DNA of 13,970 bases from Theionarchaea archaeon (GTDB taxonomy: Archaea > Methanobacteriota_B > Thermococci > Methanofastidiosales > SZ-28-30): positions 1 to 13,970 of the forward strand of contig JACVGT010000020.1 of the NCBI GenBank assembly GCA_018992685.1, given 5' to 3'. This document shows positions 1 to 13,644 of this stretch, one piece after another. Positions within the stretch are counted from its first letter, which is position 1. Each line of letters opens with the position of its first letter. Below the pieces are notes generated by a model. That model was not told where the DNA came from. It made no database searches and worked only from the letters and a program-made list of their open reading frames with translations. The translations under genes were made by a program, and so were the position numbers.

Positions 1-453
1 GGGTCGAGAGTTCAATACAGGGACAATATCTGTGGAATTGGTCCCACAGTCTATCACCAGACCATCCTCAAACAGGTTCAAGTAGGACGTCAAATAGCAG
101 GTGGCGACCCAGTTCCTGCAGGCTACGTTCAAGTAGTGCTCTCTGGCTTCTGAAGCTGTGTACAGACGAGAAGAAAGACCCAGGTATCGCACCCTGTCGC
201 CAAACAACCGTTCAGTCACATCAATAATGTAATGGGTCCCCTCCCTTGCAGAAGAAAATAATTGACGACTGATACACAATGTCTGGGTGACGACAACAAA
301 ATCAGGAGAGCCAATGGAGAAAATGAGAGTTTCAATCATTTTTCCCTCACTGAGAAAGGGGATGGACATGGATTTTACATCCAGCCGGGTTTCTGTGAAG
401 TTCAGTTGTGTGAGCTTGACATTTGCTCCTCCAATGTCGACACCAGCAATCAC
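1..453 (-). CDS. Hydantoinase/oxoprolinase-family (ASKHA fold) protein, divergent MfnF-like (H4MPT/methanofuran-linked C1 pathway family); partial, runs off the left edge
   Basis: Manual translation from GTG at 453 is open to position 1: MIAGVDIGGANVKL...VVVTQTLCISRQLFSSAREGTHYIID...VACRNWVATC...LVIDCGTNSTDIVPVLNSRP. The motif order matches MfnF-family GxDIGGANxK / EGxxxI / NWxAT / DxGxTxTDIxP. An in-frame TAA at 478-480 limits the start. Confidence 0.8.
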   Translation of the reverse strand, partial: MIAGVDIGGANVKLTQLNFTETRLDVKSMSIPFLSEGKMIETLIFSIGSPDFVVVTQTLCISRQLFSSAREGTHYIIDVTERLFGDRVRYLGLSSRLYTASEAREHYLNVACRNWVATCYLTSYLNLFEDGLVIDCGTNSTDIVPVLNSRP

Positions 454-703: not shown

Positions 704-717
704 CGAAAACCTTATAT
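704..717 (+). promoter_or_regulatory. Putative BRE+TATA promoter of the radical SAM operon
   Basis: CGAAAACCTTATAT about 60 nt upstream of GTG 776; closely resembles CGAAAACTATATA at 8328-8340. Confidence 0.55.
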
Positions 718-775
718 GATCTCTGATTCTCATTGCATAGAAGAGAAGGAATCAAGAGATGTCGAGGAGGTGTCC

Positions 776-2071
776 GTGAAGTCATCATATTACAACCTGT
801 TCTTTCCTCATGACGGGAAATTCATATTGTTCAATGCGTTGAGAGGGCCCATCTTCGTGGTTGATTCTGAAATCAAGCGCATCCTTGAGAAAAACGAGAT
901 ATCGTTCTTAGATGAGGAGCTTATTCATACGTTCGCAGACAATGACATAATCGTTGAAGATGAATTGAATGAGCAGGATGTGTACCGACTCCTCTTCGAA
1001 CGTTCGAAATACAGTACCGTTTCAACAACTGTGGAGGTTGTCACGACATATGCCTGTAATCTGGCGTGCACGTACTGTTATGAAGGAAAGGGTGAGCTCG
1101 AAAGCAAGAAGATGGATGAAAGGACAGTAGAATGTGCTTTAGAATTCATAAAAGGACTGGTGAGCGGCAATAACAGTACGGAGCTGAAAGTAACACTGTT
1201 CGGTGGTGAGCCGTTGCTGAACATGCCAGCGAATGTACTGCTTGCGGAGGAATTATGCCGATGGTGTGAGGAAAATAGTAGAGACTTTTTCATCAATGCA
1301 GTGACCAATGGAACACTCCTTGCTGAGGAGACCGTTGAAGACTTGGCTCAATACAACTGTGGCTTTCTGGTGGTCCTAGACGGCCCCCGAAAAATCCACG
1401 ATCAACGAAGAATGTACAAGAATGGAGAAGGAACCTTTGACGATATCTGTGAGGGGTTACATCGTGTTACTGATCATGGGTTAAGAATCAATATTCGGAT
1501 AAACTTGGATCAAACAAACAGAGACCACATTGTGTCTTTCTTCGAATTCTTGAAGCAAGAAGGCCTCACTGATATATCACTTAATATTACACCAGTTTTC
1601 AAGACGTCCCCTGCGTGTTCATCGTACAGCTATTGCATGACAGACATGGAGGGAGCTCTTGCTGCAACAGATCTCTACAATGTGGCCCGATCTATGAATA
1701 TTACGGTGGGGAGAAAGGACAGACCTTCGTGTCAAGGTGCGTGCAGAGCCCAAAAATACTCGAACTTCATCATAGATCCTTTTCTTAGGCTATTCAAGTG
1801 TAATATCCAGCTGCCCTTTTCGAAAAATGCAGTGGGCAGAATCAATCCGGAGAATTCAGAGCCGGAATTCAACCAGCTCTACTTTGATTTAATGCTACGA
1901 GATCCTTTTTCAGTTCAGGAATGTAGAATCTGCAGGCTTCTCCCCCTGTGTCGGGGAGGCTGCCTTGCCAAGGAATTTGAGAACATGGGTTCTGCCCGCG
2001 AGAAGATGTGCAGAAAACAACCGGTCTATGAAACACTGCAGGAGGATCTCAGAGCCTTCGTCAAAAAGTGA
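776..2071 (+). CDS. Radical SAM/SPASM-domain protein 1 (peptide maturase-like, N-terminal RRE-like extension), 431 aa
   Basis: CNLACTYC (Cx3Cx2C), FGGEPLL, TNGTL, LDG; SPASM C-x18-C...Cx2Cx5Cx3C-x15-C. Start reassigned from 548 to GTG 776 (SD GGAGGTG at 766-772; N-terminus MKSSYYN parallels MKESVYN of the paralog). Confidence 0.92.
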   Translation: MKSSYYNLFFPHDGKFILFNALRGPIFVVDSEIKRILEKNEISFLDEELIHTFADNDIIVEDELNEQDVYRLLFERSKYSTVSTTVEVVTTYACNLACTYCYEGKGELESKKMDERTVECALEFIKGLVSGNNSTELKVTLFGGEPLLNMPANVLLAEELCRWCEENSRDFFINAVTNGTLLAEETVEDLAQYNCGFLVVLDGPRKIHDQRRMYKNGEGTFDDICEGLHRVTDHGLRINIRINLDQTNRDHIVSFFEFLKQEGLTDISLNITPVFKTSPACSSYSYCMTDMEGALAATDLYNVARSMNITVGRKDRPSCQGACRAQKYSNFIIDPFLRLFKCNIQLPFSKNAVGRINPENSEPEFNQLYFDLMLRDPFSVQECRICRLLPLCRGGCLAKEFENMGSAREKMCRKQPVYETLQEDLRAFVKK

Positions 2072-2084
2072 GGAAGGTGATGAT

Positions 2085-2138
2085 ATGGCCAGCCCCAAAG
2101 GCGCCGTATCCTCTCCAGCAATGAAGGTGACTCTATGA
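2085..2138 (+). CDS. Candidate small peptide, 17 aa (MASPKGAVSSPAMKVTL); possible RiPP precursor or translational-coupling peptide
   Basis: Preceded by GAAGGTGA + 4 nt + ATG, the same SD and spacing as the rSAM2 start; its TGA overlaps the rSAM2 ATG (ATGA, 2135-2138). Confidence 0.4.
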   Translation: MASPKGAVSSPAMKVTL

Positions 2139-3463
2139 AAGAATCCGTATACAACGTGTATCTTCTGGATAAAGAAGGAGCGGATTGTCTGGTGTACAAT
2201 GTCCTGCACAGATCATTACTCCGTATTGACAATGAAGTCTTTCAGCTGATGAGATTGAGAAGAATTGACTGCATTGATGATGGAGTTCTGAAGGTACTCA
2301 AGAATGAAGGAATTGTCGTTGACGATGGTCTCAATGAATCTGACATGTTGAAGATCAGATTCAACAGAGCCAAGTACAGTGCAACCTCTCGAGGATTCAC
2401 CATCATTCCAACTCATGCCTGTAATCTGGCATGTAAGTACTGCTATCAGGGGCACGGTGACGTGCTGAGTGCCACGATGAATACAAAGACTGTGGAGCGG
2501 ACCATTGAATTCATCAAGAAGAATGTGACAGGATGTAAGAATCTGGACGTGAATTTCTACGGGGGGGAGCCCTTACTAGTTCCAGACATTGTGTTCAGGG
2601 TGGTGGAGGAGTTGCAGCATTTTGCAGATGAATCAGGTATTCATTTCTCAGCCTCCTTCACTTCCAATGGTACTCTTTTCACAGAAAGCATAATCGCAAG
2701 ACTCAAAGACTACAACTGCAGGGTGCAGATCACGTTCTGCGGTCCGAGGGAGGTGCATGATAGTATACGCGTTGATAAGCGAGGAAACGGCACATATGAC
2801 AAACTCATCAGTGTTCTCACACTGTTCAAAAAGCATGATATGGCGTTCCACATACGTGTGGATGTTGATCAAGATAATCTCGCAACAATCGATTCGCTGC
2901 TGAGAGACTTGAATGAAAAGGGATTCGGAGGCCTCTACATTGCATTTTGCTCTATAAGTAAGGATATTTGCTATACTGAACCTGACTGGGATTTAGAAGA
3001 AGTGAATGTGAAAGAACTGGCTCTTCTGTGTAAGAAGGCCCAGGATATGGGATTCACGACATTCCCAGTATATATACATAATTTCGTTGAAAAGTGCAGC
3101 GCCCTACCGGACAGGTATTTTGCCATTGATCCCAAGGGAGACATATACAAATGTATTGCGGCTTCGGGGTATCCTGAACACAGACTTGGGACGTTGAACG
3201 AGAAGGGTGAAATTGTGGATATGGACTATGAGGCCTACTGCACATGGACACTGAGAGATCCGCTTTTGATAAAAGAGTGCGCAGCATGCAAGTTCGCACC
3301 TCTCTGTGGCGGCGGATGTTCTCTGGTGGCATACCAGAAATATGGTTCAATAAATGCAGCAGGATGCAAAGAAAAGGAGCTGGGAGAAATTGTACTCACT
3401 GTTGTCAAGCTCAGATACCCGGAATTATTTGAGGGGCATCACTACGAAATCGTTGAACTCTAA
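2135..3463 (+). CDS. Radical SAM/SPASM-domain protein 2 (peptide maturase-like, N-terminal RRE-like extension), 442 aa
   Basis: CNLACKYC, YGGEPLL, SNGTL; SPASM CSALPDRYFAIDPKGDIYKC...CAACKFAPLCGGGC-x15-C; SD GAAGGTGA 4 nt before ATG. Confidence 0.93.
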   Translation: MKESVYNVYLLDKEGADCLVYNVLHRSLLRIDNEVFQLMRLRRIDCIDDGVLKVLKNEGIVVDDGLNESDMLKIRFNRAKYSATSRGFTIIPTHACNLACKYCYQGHGDVLSATMNTKTVERTIEFIKKNVTGCKNLDVNFYGGEPLLVPDIVFRVVEELQHFADESGIHFSASFTSNGTLFTESIIARLKDYNCRVQITFCGPREVHDSIRVDKRGNGTYDKLISVLTLFKKHDMAFHIRVDVDQDNLATIDSLLRDLNEKGFGGLYIAFCSISKDICYTEPDWDLEEVNVKELALLCKKAQDMGFTTFPVYIHNFVEKCSALPDRYFAIDPKGDIYKCIAASGYPEHRLGTLNEKGEIVDMDYEAYCTWTLRDPLLIKECAACKFAPLCGGGCSLVAYQKYGSINAAGCKEKELGEIVLTVVKLRYPELFEGHHYEIVEL

Positions 3464-3689
3464 AATTGTTTTTCATAGGGGGATCCTGCCGAGAATCCGG
3501 GAACAATGTGTGACCAGGAAATTACCTCATCAGCAATGTGGCCCTCCCGTAGTCTTCATGATGATCCTGGGCTTTCTGTTCTGAATCTGAAGTCGTTCCC
3601 AGTAGAGTGAGAGGTAGCAAATGATAGAGTTCAACCAGCACCTTTATGGGCAGGACGTGCGAATGGTACCTGGAGATGTGGTGAGAATA

Positions 3690-4361
3690 ATGACGACGTC
3701 CCCACAAGAAATCAGCAGAGTGACACGATCAAAGGAAGAAGCCCGCAGAAGTTATGACAGAATGAGCACATGGTATGATTTCCTGGCAGGCTCTGAGAGA
3801 AGGCATACACATGAAGGCTTGCAGAAACTCAACGTGAGAGACGGTGAGACGGTCCTGGAGGTTGGATTTGGCACAGGTGAAAGTATTGTTTCACTGGCTC
3901 ATTCAGTGGGTTCTTCAGGTGCAGTCTATGGGATTGACATATCCTCGGGAATGTTCTATGCTGCCATAGAAAGAGTACGAAGGGCAGGGCTCCAGGATAG
4001 CGTGGGGCTGATCTTGGGTGATGGTGCACACCTTCCTTTCAAGACGCATATCTTTGATGCTGTATTCATGAGCTTCACGTTAGAACTCTTCGATACTCCA
4101 GAGATTCAGGTTGTGCTTACTGAGTGCAGGAGAGTTCTCGTGGAAGGTGGTCGTATTGGTGTGGTGGCAATGTCCAAAAGGGGAAGGCAGGGTATCATGG
4201 TAGACCTGTACGAGTGGGCGCACAGGACTTTTCCTCAGTACGTGGACTGTCGGCCCATTTATGTTCGAAATGCACTGGAAGAGGGTCAGTTTCATATTGT
4301 TGATGATACAGCTATGTCCATGTGGGGATTGCCTGTGGAGATCGTTGTGGCACAGACCTGA
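3690..4361 (+). CDS. Class I SAM-dependent methyltransferase (UbiE/COQ5-like)
   Basis: Motif I VLEVGFGTG, YGIDIS, GDGAHLPF, FDAVF, ECRRVLVEGG. Start ATG 3690 preferred (GGTGA at 3680-3684); the alternative ATG 3621 has GAGGT upstream. Confidence 0.88.
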   Translation: MTTSPQEISRVTRSKEEARRSYDRMSTWYDFLAGSERRHTHEGLQKLNVRDGETVLEVGFGTGESIVSLAHSVGSSGAVYGIDISSGMFYAAIERVRRAGLQDSVGLILGDGAHLPFKTHIFDAVFMSFTLELFDTPEIQVVLTECRRVLVEGGRIGVVAMSKRGRQGIMVDLYEWAHRTFPQYVDCRPIYVRNALEEGQFHIVDDTAMSMWGLPVEIVVAQT

Positions 4362-4578: not shown

Positions 4579-5319
4579 ATGAGGCATGAAGGTGATGAAA
4601 GCAACAGATATTCCACAAAAGAGACCCGCTGTAGACGAGCCTGTAAATATGTGATATTTGACCTGGATGATACACTGTGCGACTATAAGAAGGCAAAATC
4701 AAATGCGATTACTCATCTGAACAAGGTCTTAAAGGGCAAAGGGATAGATTCACAGCGATTCTGGGAGGATTACGAGAATCTTGAACCTATTCTGTGGCGT
4801 CAGTTCCTGGACAAGGAAGTTACCAAGGAAGAATATCGAACTCGCCGCTTTGCTGAACCTCTCAGCCATGTGTCTGATGTCCCGAAGGAACTGGCATGCG
4901 AGCTAAATCAGATTTACATGGAAGATGCCAACCATGTCATTACCCTCTTCGACGACGTCATCCCACTTTTTGCATTTCTGAAGGAGAGAGGTATTGTCCC
5001 TGTCATTTCTACATCTGGACCTTCAGATGGTCAGAGAGGCAAGATTTCAGCACTTTCTCTTGAGAAGGCCACCCGGCATATCTATATCAGTGACGAAATT
5101 GGCGTGGCAAAGCCTTCTCCACGTGCGTTTGAGATAATTCTGCAGGATTTACATGCACATCCAGATGAGGTGGTCATGGTGGGGGATTCGCTTGAAGATG
5201 ATATTGAAGGAGCCGAAAAAGCGGGGATAAGAGCAATCCTCCTTGATCGGGAGCAGAAATACCCAAGATATACTGGTGAGAAGATAGAGAATCTCCAGGA
5301 ACTGGTGGTTCTCCTTTGA
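4579..5319 (+). CDS. HAD-superfamily hydrolase, subfamily IA (YjjG-like nucleotidase/phosphatase)
   Basis: Motif I IFDLDDTL, motif II STSG, motif III KP (GVAKPSP), motif IV VGDSLEDDIEGA; GAAGGTCA upstream of the ATG. Confidence 0.9.
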   Translation: MRHEGDESNRYSTKETRCRRACKYVIFDLDDTLCDYKKAKSNAITHLNKVLKGKGIDSQRFWEDYENLEPILWRQFLDKEVTKEEYRTRRFAEPLSHVSDVPKELACELNQIYMEDANHVITLFDDVIPLFAFLKERGIVPVISTSGPSDGQRGKISALSLEKATRHIYISDEIGVAKPSPRAFEIILQDLHAHPDEVVMVGDSLEDDIEGAEKAGIRAILLDREQKYPRYTGEKIENLQELVVLL

Positions 5320-5479
5320 TTAGATTTTGTGATATGTGATTCCGTTTCATGATCTGGCATGTCAGTGCTTTCGGGGAGAAACGGGGCATATAAGACGTGC
5401 AACAGATCGCCAGCAGATAGCTATGTCATTCTCATCCCAAGAGAATCAAGGAGACCACAAGAAAGTGCCTTGGTAACAG

Positions 5480-5563
5480 TGCGGAGGAAGGGATTTGAAC
5501 CCTCGGATCCCTACGGAACAAGGCCCTCAACCTTGCGCCTTTTCCAAGCTCGGCAACCTCCGC
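5480..5563 (-). tRNA. tRNA-Leu (anticodon GAG), no intron, CCA not encoded
   Basis: Reverse complement GCGGAGGTTGCCGAGCTTGGAAAAGGCGCAAGGTTGAGGGCCTTGTTCCGTAGGGATCCGAGGGTTCAAATCCCTTCCTCCGCA. Acceptor stem GCGGAGG/CCTCCGC, anticodon stem CAAGG/CCTTG with loop TTGAGGG, long variable arm, T-loop TTCAAAT, discriminator A. Confidence 0.96.
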
Positions 5564-5840: not shown

Positions 5841-5874
5841 TTTTTAAACATTTCACGCTATAAACAGAGGGTGA
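5841..5874 (+). promoter_or_regulatory. Putative TATA box and SD for the 5879-8228 operon
   Basis: TTTTTAAA at 5841-5848; GAGGGTGA at 5867-5874, 4 nt before ATG 5879. Confidence 0.45.
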
Positions 5875-5878
5875 TTTC

Positions 5879-6400
5879 ATGACCACTATTAGGCAAGAAA
5901 TAACAAGCTTTCTGGATGGCCTGGTTATCGGGTTTCTCATAGCATCCATTCTCCTGTTCCTGTTGCTGTACGCCGATTTCGTACCCGCCTACTCGTATCT
6001 GCTAGCCCTTCTTGTTGGAGGATGTGTTGCAGGTCTTATAGCGAGAGGCCTGTGGAAAGGAGGAGTTTCAGCCTTTTTCTCAGGATTCTTTGCACTATTC
6101 CTCTTTCAAGTAACGAGGGAATTCCTTTCTCTTGAATACGAGTTCTCCCTGTACCAAATCATGGTTGGGTTTGTGGCTGTCATTGTCGGAGGATGTGTCG
6201 GAGGATTTCTTACCCGACCCACTGTCATTGTCCTTGCTCAGCAAAAAGGAGAACCCCAGAAAGTGTATGTATGTCCCCAGTGTTCGGCAGAGATCCCCCT
6301 GAAAACCAAGTACTGTCCTGAGTGTGGAGCACGGCTTCAGAAAGTACCTCTAACAGAGAAAATACAGAAGATCACCAGGACAGGAGGGGAAGAGTCGTGA
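5879..6400 (+). CDS. Membrane protein (about 4 TM helices) with C-terminal zinc ribbon
   Basis: Four Gly-rich hydrophobic segments followed by CPQC-x10-CPEC; good SD. Confidence 0.85.
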   Translation: MTTIRQEITSFLDGLVIGFLIASILLFLLLYADFVPAYSYLLALLVGGCVAGLIARGLWKGGVSAFFSGFFALFLFQVTREFLSLEYEFSLYQIMVGFVAVIVGGCVGGFLTRPTVIVLAQQKGEPQKVYVCPQCSAEIPLKTKYCPECGARLQKVPLTEKIQKITRTGGEES

Positions 6401-7188
6401 ACAGAAAGCTCCTGGCTACCCTTGGTGTTATTCTCATTTTCATCATTTCCTTTATTTATATTACAGCATCAGGGATATCACAACTGTCCAATGAGACAAT
6501 CCTTTTTCTCTTTCTGGATGAAACCAGGGGAGATCAAGGCACAGTAGAAGTAGCCAGCATTGCTCTCTTCAAAGATGCCCATCTACAGGGAAGTCTCATC
6601 AAGGTTAGCCCTCTCTCGTCTACAGAGGCCCTCAAGTCTCAGGGGGTTTACTTGTCTGACACCTTGGTCAAATCTTCCAGCCTGGCAGAAGGGTTACAGA
6701 ATGCCCAGGACATCGTTGAGACGACAGCTCAGATGAAGGTGGACAGAGTGGTACTCATTAATGCCGTCGCTCTGAAATCTGTGATAGATGCAGTCCATCC
6801 CATTCCTGTGGACATCTACGTGACCCCTCAGGTGCTTGACCGGCGATTCAGTTTTCCCATCAACACCTCCGTGACAGGACAACAGGCAGAACAATGCATC
6901 CGGGGTCAGTTCTATCCCGGGGTTACTGATGAAACCCTCCTATCCATGCCTGAAGACTATCTATGGGAAGTAAAGGCTGACATCATCAACAGTGTCACCC
7001 AGACACTCTTTGACTTCTCTGCCTATACCCCTGAAGAACAGAAGAGTCTGGCCCACGTCTCAGTGGAGCAATTCAGGTCTGATCTCATTTACGTGCACCA
7101 CAGGAACACCGTTCTCACCCTGGTGTACCATCTCCCAGAATCTGTGGCCAAGTACATTGTGAACTTCGCAGTGAGACGAATTGCATGA
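6397..7188 (+). CDS. Membrane-anchored hypothetical protein, remotely LCP (LytR-CpsA-Psr)/DUF4012-like, 263 aa
   Basis: Start reassigned to GTG 6397 (GTGA overlap with the upstream stop, SD GGAGGGG). N-terminal signal/anchor NRKLLATLGVILIFIISFIYI. VDRVVLINAVALKSVIDAVHPIPV and VTGQQAEQCIRG resemble LCP segments. The CDS itself is confident; the family call is tentative. Confidence 0.65.
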   Translation: MNRKLLATLGVILIFIISFIYITASGISQLSNETILFLFLDETRGDQGTVEVASIALFKDAHLQGSLIKVSPLSSTEALKSQGVYLSDTLVKSSSLAEGLQNAQDIVETTAQMKVDRVVLINAVALKSVIDAVHPIPVDIYVTPQVLDRRFSFPINTSVTGQQAEQCIRGQFYPGVTDETLLSMPEDYLWEVKADIINSVTQTLFDFSAYTPEEQKSLAHVSVEQFRSDLIYVHHRNTVLTLVYHLPESVAKYIVNFAVRRIA

Positions 7189-8228
7189 CAGACAAACCGT
7201 CCTTTCTCTATACTGATGAATTTCTCAGTTATGATTTTACCGGCATGCATCCACTAAAACCCATTCGATTGAAACTCACTTATGACACCATGAAGGTGAG
7301 GAAAACAGTGGATGAATTCGATATCGTTGAGCCCCGTCCAGCCACAGAAGAGGAATTGTTGCAGGTTCACACTCCAGATTATGTCAATGCAGTGAAGCAG
7401 GCAGACAAAGGAATTCCCCAGTTCAAATACGGACTGGGGACCTCTGACAATCCCTTGTTTCCCGGAATGTATCACAGCTCCCTGATCTACACGGGTGCCT
7501 CCATCTGTGCAGCAGAACATCTGAAGCGGAAGGACATGGCGGTCAATATTTCTGGGGGGCTGCATCACGCCCACCCTGCACAAGCAGCTGGATTCTGCAT
7601 TTTCAATGATCCGGGACTGGCCATTGCCACACTCCTCAAGACCCATGAGAAGATAGCGTATGTTGATATTGATGCTCATCACGGAGATGGAGTCCAGGAG
7701 ATTTTCTACCGATCCAACAGGGTATTAACCATTTCCCTCCATGAATCTGGCCAGTTTCTGTTCCCCGGGACGGGATTTCCTGATGAAATCGGGGAAGGTG
7801 AAGGGAAGGGCTACAGCGTCAACATCCCCTTCAATCCATATACGGCAGCTGATGTGTATATTGAGAGCTTTCTGGAGGTAGTTCCCCCCTTGATCACAGC
7901 ATTTCAGCCCGATGTCCTGGTGTGTCAGCTGGGAGTGGACACCAATACTGATGATCCCTTGGCTGACTTTCGACTGAGTATCCAGGGATATTTAAAGGTC
8001 GTGGAACTGATCAAGAACCTTCATCCCAGGAGAGTTGTTCTGGGTGGCGGGGGGTACAACTTGAATGTGGTTCCCAAGGCATGGTCCATGGCAATGGCAG
8101 TACTTGTAGGCCATAACCTGGATATCCCCTTCGAGTCTACGTATACAACGTCAGATAACGGAAGAGAGTACGCTGAATCCATGGTGAAAGAGGTTAAGCG
8201 GCTGGTGTTTCCATTTCACGGACTTTAG
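7185..8228 (+). CDS. acuC: Zn-dependent histone deacetylase-family protein (acetoin utilization AcuC-like)
   Basis: HPLKPIR, GGLHHA, GFCIFND, YVDIDAHHGDG, SLHE, FPGTG, GVDT-x3-DPL, GGGGY; ATGA overlap with the upstream gene. Confidence 0.93.
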   Translation: MTDKPSFLYTDEFLSYDFTGMHPLKPIRLKLTYDTMKVRKTVDEFDIVEPRPATEEELLQVHTPDYVNAVKQADKGIPQFKYGLGTSDNPLFPGMYHSSLIYTGASICAAEHLKRKDMAVNISGGLHHAHPAQAAGFCIFNDPGLAIATLLKTHEKIAYVDIDAHHGDGVQEIFYRSNRVLTISLHESGQFLFPGTGFPDEIGEGEGKGYSVNIPFNPYTAADVYIESFLEVVPPLITAFQPDVLVCQLGVDTNTDDPLADFRLSIQGYLKVVELIKNLHPRRVVLGGGGYNLNVVPKAWSMAMAVLVGHNLDIPFESTYTTSDNGREYAESMVKEVKRLVFPFHGL

Positions 8229-8327
8229 GATTTTATCGATGTAGAGATGTCATTTTTTTGTAGCAGTGAAGAATTAATTCTTATGTATGGATTCTTTCCA
8301 GGCAAAACCATTCAGAAATTTCAGAAC

Positions 8328-8340
8328 CGAAAACTATATA
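8328..8340 (+). promoter_or_regulatory. Putative BRE+TATA promoter of the polyprenyl synthase
   Basis: CGAAAACTATATA about 36 nt upstream of ATG 8376; TTCAGAA occurs twice just upstream (8311-8317, 8320-8326). Confidence 0.55.
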
Positions 8341-8375
8341 ATATCTATTCAAAAAGGAGGGCAGAAGGTGTACGA

Positions 8376-9284
8376 ATGAGTATTCCAGTAATTTTCCATG
8401 AGTACATGGAGCTGATCAACAGGAAGATAGACGAAATCTTCCAAGAAGACGATCCTTCCATCAGAGATATTGCACTGTACCACATCAGAGCTGGAGGAAA
8501 GAGGGCGAGACCCATATTGTCAGTATTGACCTGCCAGGGACTTGGAGGCACACTTGAGGACGTTCTCCCCTCTGCACTAGCTCTCGAAATCCTGCACAAT
8601 GTCTCATTGATATACGACGACATGATCGATGGGAACGTACTGAGGAGGGGACAGGAACCTCTCCACGTCAAATTTGGCCACAAAAACGCACTGCTCGCAG
8701 CAAGTTATCTTACCTGGAAGGCTCTGGAGGTTTTCTCAGAGAATGTGAAGCCTGCTGCCTTGAAGGAACTGGCCTATGCTGCCCGCATGACCACACTGGG
8801 CGAGAAGCTGGATATTGACTTTTCCCGGGTGACAGAAGAGGACTACATGCGTATTTGCGAGGCTAAAACCTCCTATCAGTTCAGTGTTTCCACATTTCTT
8901 GGTGCAATTGCTGCTACTGACGATGAGGCGATCCTGCAAGAATCCCGGCGTTTTGGAAAAAATCTGGGACTCGCTTTCCAGATAAGAGACGATATCCTCA
9001 ATATAGTGGGGAAAGAATCCGTGTTTGGAAAACCTGTGGGGACAGACCTTCTACAAGGCCGACCCAATTTTGTTGTTGTGAAAGCACTTGAGAAAGTAGG
9101 AGACACCCTGTACGAGGGTGACACAGCACAGAAGATAATGGAAAGTGGCGCGGTTGAGGAAGCAACCAGGACGGCTGAAGACTATCTGGAGAAGGCCAGG
9201 CAGTTCCTCGATATGTTTACAGTGGACAAGTACAGGGAGATGTTGGATGTGATGGTTCAGTTCATCATCAGGAGAACGCTCTAG
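8376..9284 (+). CDS. Trans-polyprenyl diphosphate synthase (IspA/IdsA family), 302 aa
   Basis: GGKRARP, first Asp-rich motif DDMID followed by LRRG, KT, LGLAFQIRDDILN, GKPVGTDL. Start reassigned from 8247 to ATG 8376 (SD GAAGGTG, promoter upstream). Confidence 0.92.
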   Translation: MSIPVIFHEYMELINRKIDEIFQEDDPSIRDIALYHIRAGGKRARPILSVLTCQGLGGTLEDVLPSALALEILHNVSLIYDDMIDGNVLRRGQEPLHVKFGHKNALLAASYLTWKALEVFSENVKPAALKELAYAARMTTLGEKLDIDFSRVTEEDYMRICEAKTSYQFSVSTFLGAIAATDDEAILQESRRFGKNLGLAFQIRDDILNIVGKESVFGKPVGTDLLQGRPNFVVVKALEKVGDTLYEGDTAQKIMESGAVEEATRTAEDYLEKARQFLDMFTVDKYREMLDVMVQFIIRRTL

Positions 9285-12200
9285 CAAATCGAGTGTCTTT
9301 GGTTGGTCTCCCATTGATGGTGCGGATTGATATGTGTTCTGAAGGTAGTTTTACTAGGATTGTTCCCCAGTAGTCCTTATACTCTCTAAACAGATAGAGG
9401 TCAGCTTGATTGTCCTCAGTGGTGTAGTACCCTGCGGGAACTCCATTTACCAGAATGATTGTCCCTTTCAAAGGCCATTCCTGGCGGTGGAGAAGACAAT
9501 AGGGATCTGTATCAGGGAGGAAGAGTATGGAATCTTCTTCTGGAGACTCTTCCTCTGGAGACTCTTCTTCGGGAGGCAGAGCGTAAAACACCTCATTCTG
9601 GTGGAATACCTTCTGCCCTGTTTCATCAAGCAGGGCCTCAATGATGTACAGTTCTTCATCCACCAGTTCCTGTACCTGGAAAGGGGACACGACTCCAAAG
9701 GATTTCAGTATCCGCTTCACCAGCTCTGGTACATCAGGGTCTGTGTATAGGTGTGCATCTTCAGGGAGGCAGACGTATTCTGTGTCATGATAGGAGACGG
9801 TCACCGCCTTTCCAGTCTGGAGCAGGTTCTGTACGTCCTCTGTGGTCCTCTTCTGGACTGATTTCACATTCAGAAAAGGCAGCTGGAGGGCAGTGGCAGC
9901 AGGATTCATGCTCAACAGGGACTGCAGTCTCAGCTGGGATTTGTAGACATGGTGCAGTTCTTCTGGTAGGGGTGGTGCTTCCACCAGGATTTCATTCACA
10001 AGAGGGACACCTGCACGTTCAGCTATTTTTTTCAAGGACTCTGGCTTCACCGTAATGTTTCTGGCTCCCTGGCACCTGTAAAACCGGTAGACCCTCATAA
10101 CCTCCTCCAGCAGCTCATGTGGAGATACTGAATCGTGGAGCTCCAACGCTTCCACACAGAAGGTATCACCCACAGTGAAGAGAATCCCTCCCGCCAGGTG
10201 TCCGTCAGCCAGAATTGGTGAGAAGGAATCCCCCAGCTCAGAAGAGCTCTCGTGCCTGATCTTGTCATAGAGGGGGTCAGTATGATCAATGATTCTGATT
10301 CCTGCAGGAAGCTCCGCTTTCATAACCTGAAAGTCTTCTTCTGTACAGTACATCTCTTGAACGATGCGAGAAAACACGGTGACCTTTCTGAACTCTTCAA
10401 GGACTGGATCCAGATCATCTGAGAAGCCCGTATGGTATAAGATCTCTTCCCTGGATACAGGACCACACGAACGTATGTATCTCCTGATAATTTCTCTTCT
10501 TGCTTCTTCAGGGGAGGTGCTTTCTGCATCTAATGGATAGAATCTGTTGTGTTCATCGCGATAGACATACAGGTGCTCCTCCAGCCCGTTGAAATACGAT
10601 CCACACGCGTCAACAATATCCCTTTTTTTCAGTCCGGGATGTTCCCGGATGAACTTCAATATGTGAACTTCTCCAGAAGGTATGTCCTGTCTGTAGGCTG
10701 AAACAAAGAGGGATTTGTGTTCAGGGAGGATGTAAACCAGTCTCCCTCTGACCTTGATCCTCACGAGTGTCTTTCTGAAAAATCCAATCCGATCATAGAT
10801 GGCCCTCCTTGATCTCATGTACCCATAAGCGTCAAATACTGCTTCCACAGAGGGATAGTCAAAGTGCTTCCGGGTTAAGAATTGATTAACAGTGCCAATT
10901 TCTATGCCTTCCCCATATTCAAGGTACCTCCTGTCCTTGATTAACATGTACTGCAGGACAGGGGCAGTGAAATATCCACAGGACACTTCGTTTTCCTCAA
11001 TGAGAGTATCAAGGACTTTCTCAGCCCTCTTTGCGTCAATATCAAGGTCAGACTGTATCTCTGTAGCCGTTCGTATCCCGGCGTACAGGATCGTCAGGAC
11101 AGCATCTTTCAATGCATCATCCGAAAGCGAGTCTCCCATGGGAAATGGGTCTTGTATCCGTTCTGCAAAATACTCTTCCACTGCTGAGAGAGAAAAAGCA
11201 GGAGTCTTTTCGATAATTCTCTCTGTAACTGCCTTCTGCATGTGCTGCAGGAATTCGCTGCGGTCTTTCAGGGTGATCACATCCTGGGCTCCTGTCATGA
11301 CAATGGATAGGGCAAAGGGTGATGGAATGGTGGTGTATTCAGATACCACCACCTCGATTTCCCCATTTTCAGTTTTCCTGAGAACCTCCAGTGCGTGGTT
11401 ACAATCCAGGGCGGAATACAGCACTTCATTGAAGGTCTCTTTAACCAGAGGGAAGTCGAAAGGCAGCTCTTTCAGCAACGAACGGGCCCTGAAGTACTGG
11501 GTACGGGGAGTGACAGACTTCCCTTTGTACCGTTTCAGGAGGAGGAACCCTCGTTCTGCACAGTGTCTGAATCGCTGACAGAAGAGTTCTGTTCCCCATA
11601 CAGAGGCTCTAATGACTTCAAGGAATTCCTCACTTCGTAGTATATCTGGGGAGAAATTGAGGGATTTCCTCGAATTGAGCATGAACCCATTGTCAGTCAC
11701 CGTAAAATCCAGGCAGGACAATTTCTGCCCATACCCTCTGGCCAGGGCTTCATTGACTCGTCTTCCAAAGGGACTGTGAAAGATCAGGTGGTAGGTGTGG
11801 TCCCCATCTATGTATCGTTCCACAAAGAGTACGTCTGCCGTGGGCATGATTCCTGTGGCTTTCTTCTGTTCCTCGATGTACTGCTGGATATCAGGATCAG
11901 CCCCTCCACAGAGCAATACCTCTTTTCTAAAGTCTGAGAGATCAGCCCCAAATTCATATGAACGCGAGAGTGCTTCTCCCCTCCAGGAGGGAACAGTGGG
12001 CTTTCCTCCCAGGGCATCTTTCACCACCACATACATTCCTTCAGTCCTGATAAATTCCAGAGAACGTCCTCCCAGAACGAATATGTCCTTGGCCTTCAGG
12101 TGGGAGACAAAGTGTTCTGATAGGGTACCCAGAGGAATGCCATCAAGAGCCACGGTGAAGGTGGCCTGTGACGGGATAGTCCCGCAGTTCAAAAAGTAGA

Positions 12201-13644
12201 GGTAGAGAGAACTCTTTACTCTCCCGAAATTCTGGCCATCAAACCACAACTTCCTGTACACATGTTTTTCCTCCAAATCTGCGTAGTACCCCCCCAGGTA
12301 TTCCAGAACAGTGAGAAAATCCTCGTATCCCAGGTCAGAAAAACAATAGGAACCCCGGATGACCCTGTATGCTTCGTTACTATCCCACACCTGTTCCAGG
12401 CTCATGCCAATGAGATGCTGGGCCAGGACATCAAGACAGTTGTGGGGGATTTCCACGGGCTCCAGCCTATAAGACAGGGCCTTTCTCTTGAGAATCTCCA
12501 GTTCCACCAGTTCATCTCTGTCCTGAGCAATCAACACCCCCTTGGAGACGGCATCCCTCCCATGTCCTGCCCTCCCCACCCGCTGCATGAGCTTCGCAGT
12601 ATTCTTAGGAGAGCCCAGCTGGACCACCAAATCTACATCCCCCACATCTATGCCTAATTCCAGGGATGTGGAGGTAATGACGGATTGGATGGAACCTTTC
12701 TTCAACAGGTGCTCAATTTCCTGCCGGGTTTCCTTACCCATGCTCCCGTGGTGAGCTGCCACCGAGTACAATTCGCGGTTCTTCAACTGGTAGACAATTC
12801 GTTCTGTCCGGGAACGTGTATTGGTGAAAACAATGGTAACATTGTGTGATTCAATGAGTTCTTTGAGGATATCATAGCTTTCGTCTATTGACTTCTCCAA
12901 GGAAAGAGAAGAAAGTGAGGCAGGCTTCACGATGGAGAGATCATACTTTTTTTCCTTTTCAGCTATGAGAACATGACAGGAACGGTTCGTCCCCACAAGG
13001 AATTTTCCAATCTCTTCTACTGGTGCCTGGGTGGCCGAAAGTCCAATCCTTACAAAGGGGCCGGCAATATTCTGGAGGCGTTCCAGTGATAATGAGAGAG
13101 ATACACCCCTCTTGGTATTGCATACGTCGTGAATTTCATCTATGATCACGTATTTGACCTTGGTCAATTTTTCTCTGAATTTGGGAGCATTCAAGATGAT
13201 TTGCAGGGTCTCGGGAGTGGTAATGAGAATGTGAGGGGGAGTTTTGAGCATTTTTGATCTTCTGTAGGATGAGGTATCTCCTGTCCGGACAACCACACGA
13301 ATATCTGCAAACGGAGCTTCCTTCTTGATCCCCTCCAGGGGAATCATCAAGTTCTTCTGTATGTCATTGGACAAGGCCCGCAGGGGGGATACATATATGA
13401 CGTAGACCATGTCCTCAAGCTGGGCCTTTTCTGCTTCGGAGACCAGATAGTCGATAGAAACCAGAAACCCTGCCAGTGTTTTTCCACTTCCTGTGGGAGA
13501 AAGGAGGAGGATGTTCTGATCGTCTTTGAGCAGGGGGAAGGCTAGTCTCTGGGGTTCTGTCAGGGAATGAAAGGACGAGGAGACCCATGCCCTGACTGCG
13601 GGATGAAACAGTGAGATGACGGAAGCGTCGCTATCCATGGGCAC
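9268..13644 (-). CDS. lhr: Lhr-family SF2 ATP-dependent helicase with long C-terminal extension, 1458 aa
   Basis: SPTGSGKT, YVSPLRALSND, ITTPETL, DEIH, GLSAT, HHGSM, TSTSLELGIDVG, QRVGRAGH, and Lhr-type LDVLAQH, GTIP, PSWRGE, HSPFGRRVN, PSPFA. Start is GTG 13644 (GGAGGA upstream) or ATG 13638. The 3' end overlaps the polyprenyl synthase by 17 nt. Confidence 0.95.
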   Translation of the reverse strand: MPMDSDASVISLFHPAVRAWVSSSFHSLTEPQRLAFPLLKDDQNILLLSPTGSGKTLAGFLVSIDYLVSEAEKAQLEDMVYVIYVSPLRALSNDIQKNLMIPLEGIKKEAPFADIRVVVRTGDTSSYRRSKMLKTPPHILITTPETLQIILNAPKFREKLTKVKYVIIDEIHDVCNTKRGVSLSLSLERLQNIAGPFVRIGLSATQAPVEEIGKFLVGTNRSCHVLIAEKEKKYDLSIVKPASLSSLSLEKSIDESYDILKELIESHNVTIVFTNTRSRTERIVYQLKNRELYSVAAHHGSMGKETRQEIEHLLKKGSIQSVITSTSLELGIDVGDVDLVVQLGSPKNTAKLMQRVGRAGHGRDAVSKGVLIAQDRDELVELEILKRKALSYRLEPVEIPHNCLDVLAQHLIGMSLEQVWDSNEAYRVIRGSYCFSDLGYEDFLTVLEYLGGYYADLEEKHVYRKLWFDGQNFGRVKSSLYLYFLNCGTIPSQATFTVALDGIPLGTLSEHFVSHLKAKDIFVLGGRSLEFIRTEGMYVVVKDALGGKPTVPSWRGEALSRSYEFGADLSDFRKEVLLCGGADPDIQQYIEEQKKATGIMPTADVLFVERYIDGDHTYHLIFHSPFGRRVNEALARGYGQKLSCLDFTVTDNGFMLNSRKSLNFSPDILRSEEFLEVIRASVWGTELFCQRFRHCAERGFLLLKRYKGKSVTPRTQYFRARSLLKELPFDFPLVKETFNEVLYSALDCNHALEVLRKTENGEIEVVVSEYTTIPSPFALSIVMTGAQDVITLKDRSEFLQHMQKAVTERIIEKTPAFSLSAVEEYFAERIQDPFPMGDSLSDDALKDAVLTILYAGIRTATEIQSDLDIDAKRAEKVLDTLIEENEVSCGYFTAPVLQYMLIKDRRYLEYGEGIEIGTVNQFLTRKHFDYPSVEAVFDAYGYMRSRRAIYDRIGFFRKTLVRIKVRGRLVYILPEHKSLFVSAYRQDIPSGEVHILKFIREHPGLKKRDIVDACGSYFNGLEEHLYVYRDEHNRFYPLDAESTSPEEARREIIRRYIRSCGPVSREEILYHTGFSDDLDPVLEEFRKVTVFSRIVQEMYCTEEDFQVMKAELPAGIRIIDHTDPLYDKIRHESSSELGDSFSPILADGHLAGGILFTVGDTFCVEALELHDSVSPHELLEEVMRVYRFYRCQGARNITVKPESLKKIAERAGVPLVNEILVEAPPLPEELHHVYKSQLRLQSLLSMNPAATALQLPFLNVKSVQKRTTEDVQNLLQTGKAVTVSYHDTEYVCLPEDAHLYTDPDVPELVKRILKSFGVVSPFQVQELVDEELYIIEALLDETGQKVFHQNEVFYALPPEEESPEEESPEEDSILFLPDTDPYCLLHRQEWPLKGTIILVNGVPAGYYTTEDNQADLYLFREYKDYWGTILVKLPSEHISIRTINGRPTKDTRFARAFS
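9533..9577. repeat. Three tandem 15-bp units within lhr encoding an acidic (S/P)PEE(E/D) linker
   Basis: TCTTCTTCTGGAGAC / TCTTCCTCTGGAGAC / TCTTCTTCGGGAGGC; protein PPEEESPEEESPEED. Confidence 0.85.

Follow-up and report, generated by a model that had tools for sequence, protein, structure and literature searches.

A co-encoded pair of radical SAM/SPASM enzymes with RRE-like N-termini in Theionarchaea-type archaea, with no recognisable precursor beside it

The window, that is, the whole stretch of Theionarchaea DNA analysed here and the entire contig of 13,970 bp, carries two adjacent genes, A and B, each encoding an RRE-like domain, a radical SAM core and a SPASM domain, followed by a methyltransferase gene. 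The features of this region are as follows.

701-716, + strand: putative archaeal BRE/TATA CGAAAACCTTATATGA, upstream of gene A
766-772, + strand: Shine-Dalgarno-like GGAGGTG, 3 nt 5' of the GTG start of gene A
776-2071, + strand: gene A (431 aa)
776-1021, + strand: predicted N-terminal RRE-like domain of A (residues 1-82)
1055-1078, + strand: radical SAM cluster motif CxxxCxxC of A (C94, C98, C101)
1742-2011, + strand: seven-cysteine SPASM region of A (C323 to C412)
2135-3463, + strand: gene B (442 aa)
2135-2386, + strand: predicted N-terminal RRE-like domain of B (residues 1-84)
2420-2443, + strand: radical SAM cluster motif CxxxCxxC of B (C96, C100, C103)
3095-3367, + strand: seven-cysteine SPASM region of B (C321 to C411)
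3464-3474, + strand: oligo-T run AATTGTTTTTC, immediately 3' of the gene B stop
3690-4361, + strand: class I SAM methyltransferase (UbiE-like; Pfam and NCBIfam)

In the ORF listing the reading frame of gene A is open over 548-2071, and GTG 776 is the most plausible start, because GGAGGTG lies just upstream and the contig's predicted protein (P0001) comprises 431 aa at 100% coverage; GGAGGTG also precedes the first gene of the pair in a related locus, L001. The putative BRE/TATA was recognised by eye against the archaeal consensus. Oligo-T runs serve as archaeal terminators, and the run at 3464-3474 likely marks the end of the A-B transcript. The methyltransferase frame is open from 3621, with a probable start at ATG 3690, since the contig's prediction (P0240) has 223 aa and relatives have ~225 aa. 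A and B share 29% identity over 430 aa (E 3e-67), in line with the co-oriented paralogous radical SAM pair reported in a preliminary description of this DNA. A DNA repeat (D1) common to both genes spans the CxxxCxxC motif of gene A.

The Pfam radical SAM model PF04055 matched A with 63.9 bits and B with 60.3 bits (gathering cut-off 29.5), which assigns both proteins to the superfamily. The SPASM subfamily is defined by the pattern C-x9-18-G/x-x4-C ... CxxCx5Cx3C ... C, for two auxiliary 4Fe-4S clusters. The seven-cysteine motif described earlier for each enzyme is complete (C323, C342, C383, C386, C392, C396 and C412 in A; C321, C340, C382, C385, C391, C395 and C411 in B) and invariant in 63 of 63 aligned sequences; together with a predicted fold matching CteB and anSME, it places A and B in the SPASM subfamily at the level of sequence and model. 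The Pfam SPASM model PF13186 was absent from the matches of both. An extra cysteine upstream (C281 in A, C279 in B) occurs in 57 of the 63 aligned sequences. This conserved eighth cysteine could supply the last ligand of auxiliary cluster I, which may set A and B apart from CteB and CrpC, whose open iron site supposedly binds a substrate cysteine.

An RRE comprises a three-stranded antiparallel sheet and three helices that bind a leader peptide. In the AF2 model of A (pLDDT 91.3), DSSP assigned strands to residues 7-12, 15-20 and 26-29 and helices to residues 31-38, 47-55 and 66-78, describing a beta3-alpha3 winged helix; the domain-only AF2 model of B (pLDDT 85) has the same order, with strands at 7-11, 17-22 and 27-32 and helices at 33-40, 49-57 and 68-81. 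This domain coincides with the ~85-aa MKxSxYN extension noted previously, in which K2, S4 and N7 are each conserved at a level of at least 90%, and the radical SAM core follows it, beginning at about residue 88-90. Foldseek analysis of the N-terminal domain of B alone ranked the N-terminus of TigE best (E 7e-3, TMq 0.67), with the stand-alone RRE TbiB1 next, and returned no match at E ≤ 0.001; Pfam PqqD/RRE models found no match in A or B (PqqD at E ≤ 1). When PDB sequences were searched with the family profile, position 3 of the profile aligned with residue 9 of TigE, of which residues 3-85 constitute the RRE according to the accessible part of PMC10878394. The beta3-alpha3 order of both models and the full-length alignments to CteB and TigE that include the domain fit the proposal of RRE-type N-termini, the domain-only match being weak.

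Among curated NCBIfam models, CefB (NF038107) matched both proteins best, over their full length including the N-terminal domain (315 bits for A and 284 for B; cut-off 600), and TIGR04463, the CrpC family, ranked among the three best for both (184 and 214 bits; cut-off 525). The Clo7bot (191 and 164 bits), geopeptide (163 and 151 bits) and PapB (141 and 155 bits) models were also matched, and the anSME model TIGR03942 yielded 86 and 112 bits (cut-off 349). None of the curated family cut-offs was reached by A or B, and the chemistry of these families is therefore not transferable to them with confidence. Against PDB sequences, the family profile matched CteB at 1.7e-46, TigE at 4.8e-30 (from profile position 3) and anSME at 3e-29 (core only), and the non-peptide enzymes BlsE at 4.6e-9 and tetraether synthase GDGT-MAS at 4e-4. 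Foldseek placed CteB (E 3e-19, TM 0.71) and TigE at the top for the model of A, with 436-479 aligned columns that include the N-terminal domain; anSME was aligned over ~380 columns. Sequence profiles and the predicted fold support the placement of A and B far nearer to thioether-type peptide maturases than to sulfatase maturases, consistent with the peptide-modifying branch proposed at the outset. In phylogenetic trees, A (support 99-100) and B (support 99) form separate clades, both outside true CefB sequences, which score 613-677 bits and constitute their own clade (support 99-100); A and B define two new subfamilies. Membership of CefB was rejected on the scores, on the position outside the true CefB clade and because a CefA-like peptide was not found; membership of TIGR04463 was likewise rejected, the scores lying far below 525 bits and a Cys-rich ORF being absent from the window and from the surroundings of the pair in L001. 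Three relatives within the A clade (P0054, P0056 and P0060; 43-46% identity) bear an N-terminal short-chain dehydrogenase domain, and these fusions hint at redox chemistry beyond a simple thioether.

In L001, orthologues of B (64% identity) and A (57%) are adjacent in swapped order and overlap, the start codon of A lying 20 nt ahead of the stop of B. For 13 of the 47 A-side clusters (P0002-P0048), the longest contig is exactly equal in size to that of a B-side cluster, and four of these 13 contigs measure only 3.0-5.2 kb, leaving little space for other genes; the remaining 34 have no size-matched B-side contig, 11 of them residing on contigs of at least 10 kb. Adjacency, read directly in L001 and suggested by equal contig sizes for 12 further contigs, indicates that the pair is kept together in Theionarchaea-type MAGs, as the expected synteny of the two enzymes had implied. 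The methyltransferase, whose synteny the preliminary description had named as a test of its proposal, is absent beside the pair in L001, the sole related locus that could be read. In the window, the oligo-T run and a gap of ~226 nt precede it, and it belongs to a family spread very widely through bacteria and archaea (6556 matches at E ≤ 0.001; the best 120, all with at least 59% identity, include bacterial records). Of the two roles originally allowed for it, that of unrelated neighbour fits these data better than that of tailoring enzyme. The conserved unit in Theionarchaea-type archaea is the A-B pair, not the methyltransferase, which is probably a neighbour rather than a part of the system and would be transcribed separately.

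Prediction of the A-B complex gave an ipSAE of 0.76 (0.76-0.77 in three runs), against 0.00 for the best control; the mark of 0.76 is attained by 116 of 157 solved complexes and by 2 of 215 mismatched pairs. Predicted contacts agreed between runs to at least 88%, with partner pLDDT values of at least 84. The predicted interface consists of homologous, similar residues on both chains and shows no more conservation than the remaining positions; the entropy of interface positions in A is 1.58 versus 1.16 elsewhere, i.e. more variable (p 0.03), and in B it is 1.07 versus 1.07. Homodimers are therefore equally possible, and the prediction supports A-B binding with heterodimer and homodimers not distinguished.

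A precursor candidate beside the pair was found in neither of the two loci, the whole window and L001. Enzyme genes aside, the window and L001 have no conserved small ORF in common, and none of the 25 small ORFs around the pair across both loci matches a precursor family. The largest upstream ORF, 469-726 (85 aa), had one borderline match (E 6.6e-4) among 1.84 billion representatives and overlaps a TATA-like TTTTAAATA at 476-484. As stated previously, no protease or exporter occurs among the 10 window ORFs scanned, nor does a sulfatase. With an adjacent precursor gene as the defining feature, the locus was rejected as a RiPP biosynthetic gene cluster, and the earlier notion of a self-contained cluster was not sustained.

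The reading that we consider fairly probable is that A and B constitute a precursor-less twin maturase pair, a two-gene operon of old paralogues of the CefB / TIGR04463 (CrpC) / Clo7bot / CteB-like branch, whose substrate would be a peptide or protein with its gene elsewhere. Since the substrate was not found, it is homology and fold that point to peptide modification. The N-terminal RRE of each enzyme would grip the leader or N-terminal part of a ribosomal peptide or protein, and SAM cleavage at the CxxxCxxC cluster would generate a 5'-deoxyadenosyl radical that takes a substrate hydrogen. The two SPASM clusters would then help to close a cross-link, most probably, judging from the nearest families, a Cys thioether (ranthionine or sactionine). 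A dimer is probable, in which the RRE alpha3 helix of each subunit would pack on the SPASM helix of the other. With its substrate encoded elsewhere in the genome, the pair would therefore be an orphan twin maturase, not a self-contained RiPP gene cluster. A more specific and tentative version, which we hold to be doubtful, is an obligate, pseudo-symmetric A-B heterodimer built on this alpha3-SPASM helix contact. Such a two-headed maturase, carrying six 4Fe-4S clusters and two different leader-binding sites, would be a housekeeping system retained throughout Theionarchaea-type archaea that cross-links a peptide or protein whose gene lies elsewhere, and not a natural-product cluster.

The HxsB/HxsC, ScmE/ScmF and TrnC/TrnD systems likewise encode two paralogous radical SAM enzymes together, although those clusters, unlike the A/B locus, include precursor genes; the HxsB and ScmE NCBIfam models matched A and B weakly, far under their cut-offs. 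The thioether-forming SCIFF maturase CteB (PDB 5WGG/5WHY) is the closest solved structure by profile and fold and combines an RRE with radical SAM and SPASM domains, as predicted for A and B, but it is a bacterial, single enzyme with 17-18% identity to A and B. CteB has an adjacent precursor, CteA. CefB, the Cys-every-fifth maturase, differs in forming a separate clade and in its 600-bit cut-off, well above the A and B scores. TigE (PDB 8VPO), a cyclopropylglycine synthase, is the best match to the N-terminal RRE-like domain and aligns with the profile over its full length, but it carries a GYW motif and, as described in the available portion of PMC10878394, performs a different chemistry on a repeat peptide. 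CrpC of Methanococcus voltae (TIGR04463) resembles A and B in being archaeal and in its layout, with an RRE (predicted in A and B) ahead of the radical SAM core and the seven-cysteine SPASM domain; according to the accessible part of PMC13692751 (2026), it installs ranthionine cross-links on a Cys-rich protein and, when alone, runs as monomer and dimer. Within what that source covers, CrpC is the nearest characterised archaeal relative of A and B and the sole characterised archaeal SPASM thioether enzyme found in the literature searched (PMC13692751). It is, however, a single enzyme beside its Cys-rich substrates CrpA and CrpB, whereas A and B are two paralogues without a Cys-rich neighbour.

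Among the alternatives, A and B might be peptide or protein maturases with a non-thioether chemistry (C-C cross-link, epimerisation, cyclopropyl formation or side-chain oxidation), at times with a dehydrogenase partner. The rank of TigE among the top structural and sequence matches, the dehydrogenase fusions in the A clade, the scores below all family cut-offs and the extra conserved cysteine are compatible with such a role, which we nevertheless regard as unlikely, because the best NCBIfam models (CefB, TIGR04463, Clo7bot, geopeptide, PapB) are named after Cys-rich targets or thioether products and because the GYW motif of TigE-type cyclopropyl synthases, as given in the accessible text of PMC10878394, was not found on reading the A and B sequences. 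Were the locus a self-contained RiPP gene cluster, with A and B working on a local precursor and the methyltransferase downstream tailoring the product, the co-orientation of all three genes would be accounted for, and radical SAM/SPASM-methyltransferase fusions, such as P0229, do occur among distant relatives. The methyltransferase domain of P0229 is, however, only generically similar (26%) to that of the window, and the flanking small ORFs, the borderline match of ORF 469-726 with its TATA-like overlap, and the position, wide distribution and absence from L001 of the methyltransferase render this arrangement quite improbable.

Still less probable is a non-peptide substrate (small molecule, lipid or cofactor precursor), with the N-terminal domain serving dimerisation. 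The missing local precursor, the apparently wide retention of the pair in the lineage, more housekeeping-like than a patchy natural-product cluster, the existence of dehydrogenase fusions and the part of the RRE alpha3 helix in the predicted dimer interface could be read in this way, but similarity to the non-peptide SPASM/twitch enzymes GDGT-MAS and BlsE is weak and the N-terminal domain is homologous to the peptide-binding ones of CteB and TigE. In anSME, an eighth cysteine ligates auxiliary cluster I, as the extra cysteine of A and B possibly could, and the core has a significant structural and sequence match to this enzyme. That A and B resemble anSME in oxidising a Cys or Ser of a target protein to formylglycine is, even so, highly improbable: the TIGR03942 scores lie far under 349 bits, anSME has no N-terminal domain, its alignments beginning at residue 94, and a sulfatase gene was found neither in the window nor in L001, in keeping with the weak argument from its absence made earlier.

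For annotation, the methyltransferase is not to be counted in a gene cluster with A and B. Archaeal radical-SAM RiPP clusters have been predicted yet remain unexplored, as far as the accessible part of PMC12144867 goes, and the A and B subfamilies stay paired throughout an uncultured lineage in which no substrate is visible. Should A and B prove to be a heterodimer with a distant protein target, they would be a concrete target for co-expression, and RiPP-like chemistry would extend to housekeeping protein modification in archaea.

The two neighbouring radical SAM/SPASM genes seen in the preliminary description were confirmed as co-oriented paralogues (29% identity, E 3e-67), encoding enzymes A and B of 431 and 442 aa, both of which score above the Pfam Radical_SAM cut-off and carry a CxxxCxxC motif. 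An alignment of 63 sequences has the seven SPASM cysteines of A and B in every one of them and an additional cysteine upstream of these seven in 57; both proteins share a conserved MKxSxYN start, with about 85 residues preceding the radical SAM core. Their named homologues belong to Theionarchaea and Methanofastidiosia MAGs. The best-placed start of A is GTG 776, which has GGAGGTG in front and agrees with the 431-aa database prediction. A BRE/TATA-like sequence, CGAAAACCTTATATGA, was recognized by eye at 701-716, the 63-nt spacer between A and B is devoid of oligo-T, and AATTGTTTTTC immediately follows the stop codon of B. The genes of the window, which spans the entire 13,970-bp contig, are listed below.

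Genes of the window (coordinates, strand, product)
1-453, minus strand, MfnF / H4MPT-pathway-like gene
776-2071, plus strand, radical SAM enzyme A
2135-3463, plus strand, radical SAM enzyme B
3621/3690-4361, plus strand, UbiE-like class I methyltransferase
4579-5319, plus strand, HAD phosphatase
5479-5563, minus strand, tRNA-Leu(GAG)
5879-6400, plus strand, membrane protein with zinc ribbon
6322-7188, plus strand, DUF4012-like ORF
7185-8228, plus strand, histone-deacetylase-family enzyme
8247-9284, plus strand, polyprenyl synthase
9268-13644, minus strand, Lhr-type helicase

As listed, the membrane/zinc-ribbon ORF (5879-6400) and the DUF4012-like ORF (6322-7188) overlap by 79 nt, and the real start of the latter is probably located further downstream. 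A TATA-like sequence, TTTTAAATA, near the archaeal consensus and likewise noted by eye, occupies positions 476-484. The divergent MfnF-like gene begins with a GTG at 453, 24-31 nt away; the box is well placed to drive this gene and suggests a leaderless transcript.

Peptide maturases were the top-ranked NCBIfam models for both enzymes, with full-length matches; A and B fall below every curated cut-off.

NCBIfam scores of enzymes A and B (bits for A; bits for B; cut-off)
CefB (NF038107): 315; 284; 600
TIGR04463 (CrpC): 184; 214; 525
Clo7bot: 191; 164; 600
Geopeptide maturase: 163; 151; 400
PapB: 141; 155; 340
Sulfatase maturase TIGR03942: 86; 112; 349

Searched against PDB sequences, the family profile matched the peptide maturases CteB (1.7e-46) and TigE (4.8e-30, aligned from profile position 3), the sulfatase maturase anSME over the core only, from position 94 (3e-29), and archaeal tetraether synthase at 4e-4. 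The AlphaFold model of A (pLDDT 91.3) matched CteB with E 3e-19 and TM 0.71, with CteB and TigE aligned over 436-479 columns and anSME over approximately 380. Taken together, the NCBIfam ranking, the PDB profile and the structural matches place A and B, as judged from sequence and predicted structure, in the peptide-modifying SPASM branch, and the initial recognition of the pair as twin enzymes, probably of the RRE type (RRE, RiPP recognition element), holds. In the models of both N-termini, three strands precede three helices, the same winged-helix layout as that of the TigE RRE, which spans residues 3-85 in the available text of PMC10878394. When residues 1-90 of B were modelled alone (pLDDT 85), the best PDB match was the TigE N-terminus (E 7e-3, TMq 0.67, 96 columns), followed by the stand-alone RRE TbiB1 (E 0.07) and PaaA (E 0.46); nothing in this structure search reached E 1e-3, and a Pfam scan of the N-termini alone gave nothing at E≤1. 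Judging from these models, the N-terminal domains of A and B likely adopt an RRE fold.

Both trees that were built resolve A (support 99-100) and B (99) as clades of their own, lying outside true CefB (99-100); the two are sisters in FastTree (support 89) but not in the IQ-TREE quick tree. A and B are old paralogues and not the product of a recent tandem duplication. A search of the ESM Atlas returned generic radical SAM clusters only. Theionarchaea-type genomes possess more CefB-like radical SAM/SPASM paralogues, falling into separate clades in the trees (clusters P0186, P0089, P0078, P0085 and P0096, the first two being Theionarchaea DG-70-1 and DG-70, respectively); with these additional paralogues beside A and B, such maturases therefore form an expanded set in this lineage.

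The search of genome contigs revealed one close locus, L001, on a contig of 11.8 kb from a MAG labelled Thermococci. Here the B orthologue (7195-8523, 64% identity) precedes that of A (8504-9805, 57% identity), so that the gene order is swapped with respect to the window and A starts 20 nt before the stop of B. In an all-against-all BLASTP comparison of the window and L001 ORFs, the two enzymes and shadow frames inside them were common to both loci, and nothing else. The synteny expected in relatives thus holds for the pair, which lies side by side in L001, but not for the methyltransferase, which is missing from beside it. The MfnF-like gene was also considered as a third conserved neighbour and discarded, its L001 counterpart (2160-2984) being a type II pantothenate kinase and not an orthologue. 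Indirect evidence for adjacency in further relatives is that, among the 47 clusters of A relatives (P0002-P0048), 13 have a longest contig of the same size as that of a cluster of B relatives (3006, 4589, 5127, 5245, 11813, 11956, 12687, 18900, 21874, 33662, 51579, 55245 and 88867 bp), a matching that considers solely the longest contig of each cluster. The other 34 of 47 have no such counterpart; many of them are on contigs too short for both genes, and 11 are on contigs of at least 10 kb, for which reason universal adjacency of A and B is not claimed.

Several other features of L001 were recorded. The pair is followed after 100 nt, in the same orientation, by an M29-family peptidase-like gene (9905-10849), and a gene for an OPT oligopeptide transporter (387-2114) lies about 5 kb upstream; since neither is present in the window, a connection of either with the pair lacks support. 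The intergenic DNA contains three copies of a perfect 16-nt palindrome, TGTTACACGTGTAACA, which may serve as an operator (3017-3032, 9829-9844 and 10871-10886), with one copy 24 nt past the stop of the A orthologue and upstream of the M29-peptidase-like gene; the window contains no copy of it, allowing up to three mismatches. Approximately 1.2 kb upstream of the pair, a 42-aa ORF (5868-5993) resembles the C-terminus of IS66 transposases (E 7e-4) and may be an insertion-sequence remnant.

The preliminary description had read 704..4361 as a candidate RiPP cluster consisting of the twin maturases and a methyltransferase, which claims more than the two loci bear out, as neither the window nor L001 holds a precursor candidate. 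No small ORF around the pair is conserved between the window and L001 (all-against-all BLASTP), and none of 25 small flanking ORFs matched an NCBIfam precursor family, the only weak matches being one at E 7e-4 to an IS66 fragment and one at E 0.078 to an integrase. An 85-aa ORF (469-726) had a single borderline match and no other relatives in a library of 1.84 billion proteins, and its overlap with the TATA-like TTTTAAATA argues against a real gene. The A-B spacer is filled by an 18-aa ORF (2068-2124, MRKVMIWPAPKAPYPLQQ), whose GTG overlaps the stop of A (GTGA) and whose stop codon directly adjoins the Shine-Dalgarno-like sequence of B; it has no counterpart in L001, where the genes overlap, and is probably due to chance. 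A 30-aa ORF with three cysteines (561-653) also has no L001 counterpart. The archaeal pair thus differs from CrpC, whose gene adjoins CrpA and CrpB (in the available text of PMC13692751), in having no candidate substrate beside it at either locus, and on the evidence of the window and L001 it is an orphan. The distant locus L002, from a Bacilli MAG, has a textbook-looking pairing of Cys-rich substrate and maturase: an extremely Cys-rich protein of 253 aa (6804-7565), which consists mostly of Cys-Gly-Ser repeats and matches no NCBIfam family, directly upstream of a radical SAM/SPASM gene (7899-9233); no such Cys-rich protein adjoins A-B.

The methyltransferase, proposed earlier as a possible tailoring enzyme, is most likely an unrelated neighbour. 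It is absent beside the L001 pair, where the M29-peptidase-like gene follows; its probable start at 3690 leaves about 226 nt after B; and its family is large, with 6556 matches at E≤0.001, the best 120 of which all show at least 59% identity and include bacterial records (Anaerolineae, Prolixibacteraceae). The methyltransferase and A/B lists have a single contig size in common, the 356,577 bp of a Theionarchaea contig with relatives of B and of the methyltransferase, and at such a length a shared contig does not imply adjacency. P0229, a distant protein in which a radical SAM enzyme is fused to a methyltransferase, was examined as support for the association and set aside, being only generically similar (26%). 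In its own right, the product of 3690-4361 (~225 aa) is a highly conserved enzyme, its family being 60-70% identical among records from bacteria and archaea, yet it scores below all NCBIfam cut-offs (best models MenG/UbiE, ~75 bits, and CpaM, 64 bits).

Complex prediction supports binding of A to B, with an ipSAE of 0.76 (0.76-0.77 in three runs) versus 0.00 for the best control; 116 of 157 solved complexes, and 2 of 215 mismatched pairs, attained this mark. Contacts agreed between runs to 88% or more, and the partner pLDDT was no lower than 84. The predicted interface is pseudo-symmetric, involving residues 61-82, 328 and 366-374 of A and 63-84, 326 and 363-373 of B. These contact residues are homologous and similar in both chains and are no better conserved than the rest of A or B, and CrpC alone occurs as monomer and dimer (same source, PMC13692751), so that homodimers are equally possible as the A-B heterodimer.

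In the mechanism we propose, each enzyme would be guided by its RRE in binding a ribosomal peptide or protein whose gene lies elsewhere, SAM would be cleaved reductively at the CxxxCxxC cluster, the resulting radical would take a hydrogen, and a cross-link would be closed with the help of two SPASM clusters. By family resemblance, this cross-link would most likely be a Cys thioether, as in CrpC and CteB. In clusters P0054, P0056 and P0060 (649-658 aa) and in the truncated P0052, a short-chain dehydrogenase (~1-195) is fused before the RRE/radical SAM/SPASM unit. These dehydrogenase-fused relatives within the A clade are 43-46% identical to A and suggest that, in a sister subclade, radical SAM catalysis is coupled to an NAD(P)-dependent step. 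The eighth conserved cysteine might fully ligate auxiliary cluster I. The fusions, found in three A-clade relatives, and the eighth cysteine therefore call for caution regarding thioether chemistry.

No description of the A-B pair was found in the literature searched, a search that did not extend to subscription journals and supplements. In the accessible text of PMC9635834, 'radical SAM' appears solely in reference titles on methyl-coenzyme M reductase modification and these genes are not treated, surveys covering archaeal ranthipeptide clusters merely count them in the portions available, and no heterodimeric SPASM maturase is named in the titles or abstract openings of the matching RiPP literature. 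The pair represents new subfamilies of a known enzyme type, and its possible heterodimer and missing substrate are the testable questions that it raises.
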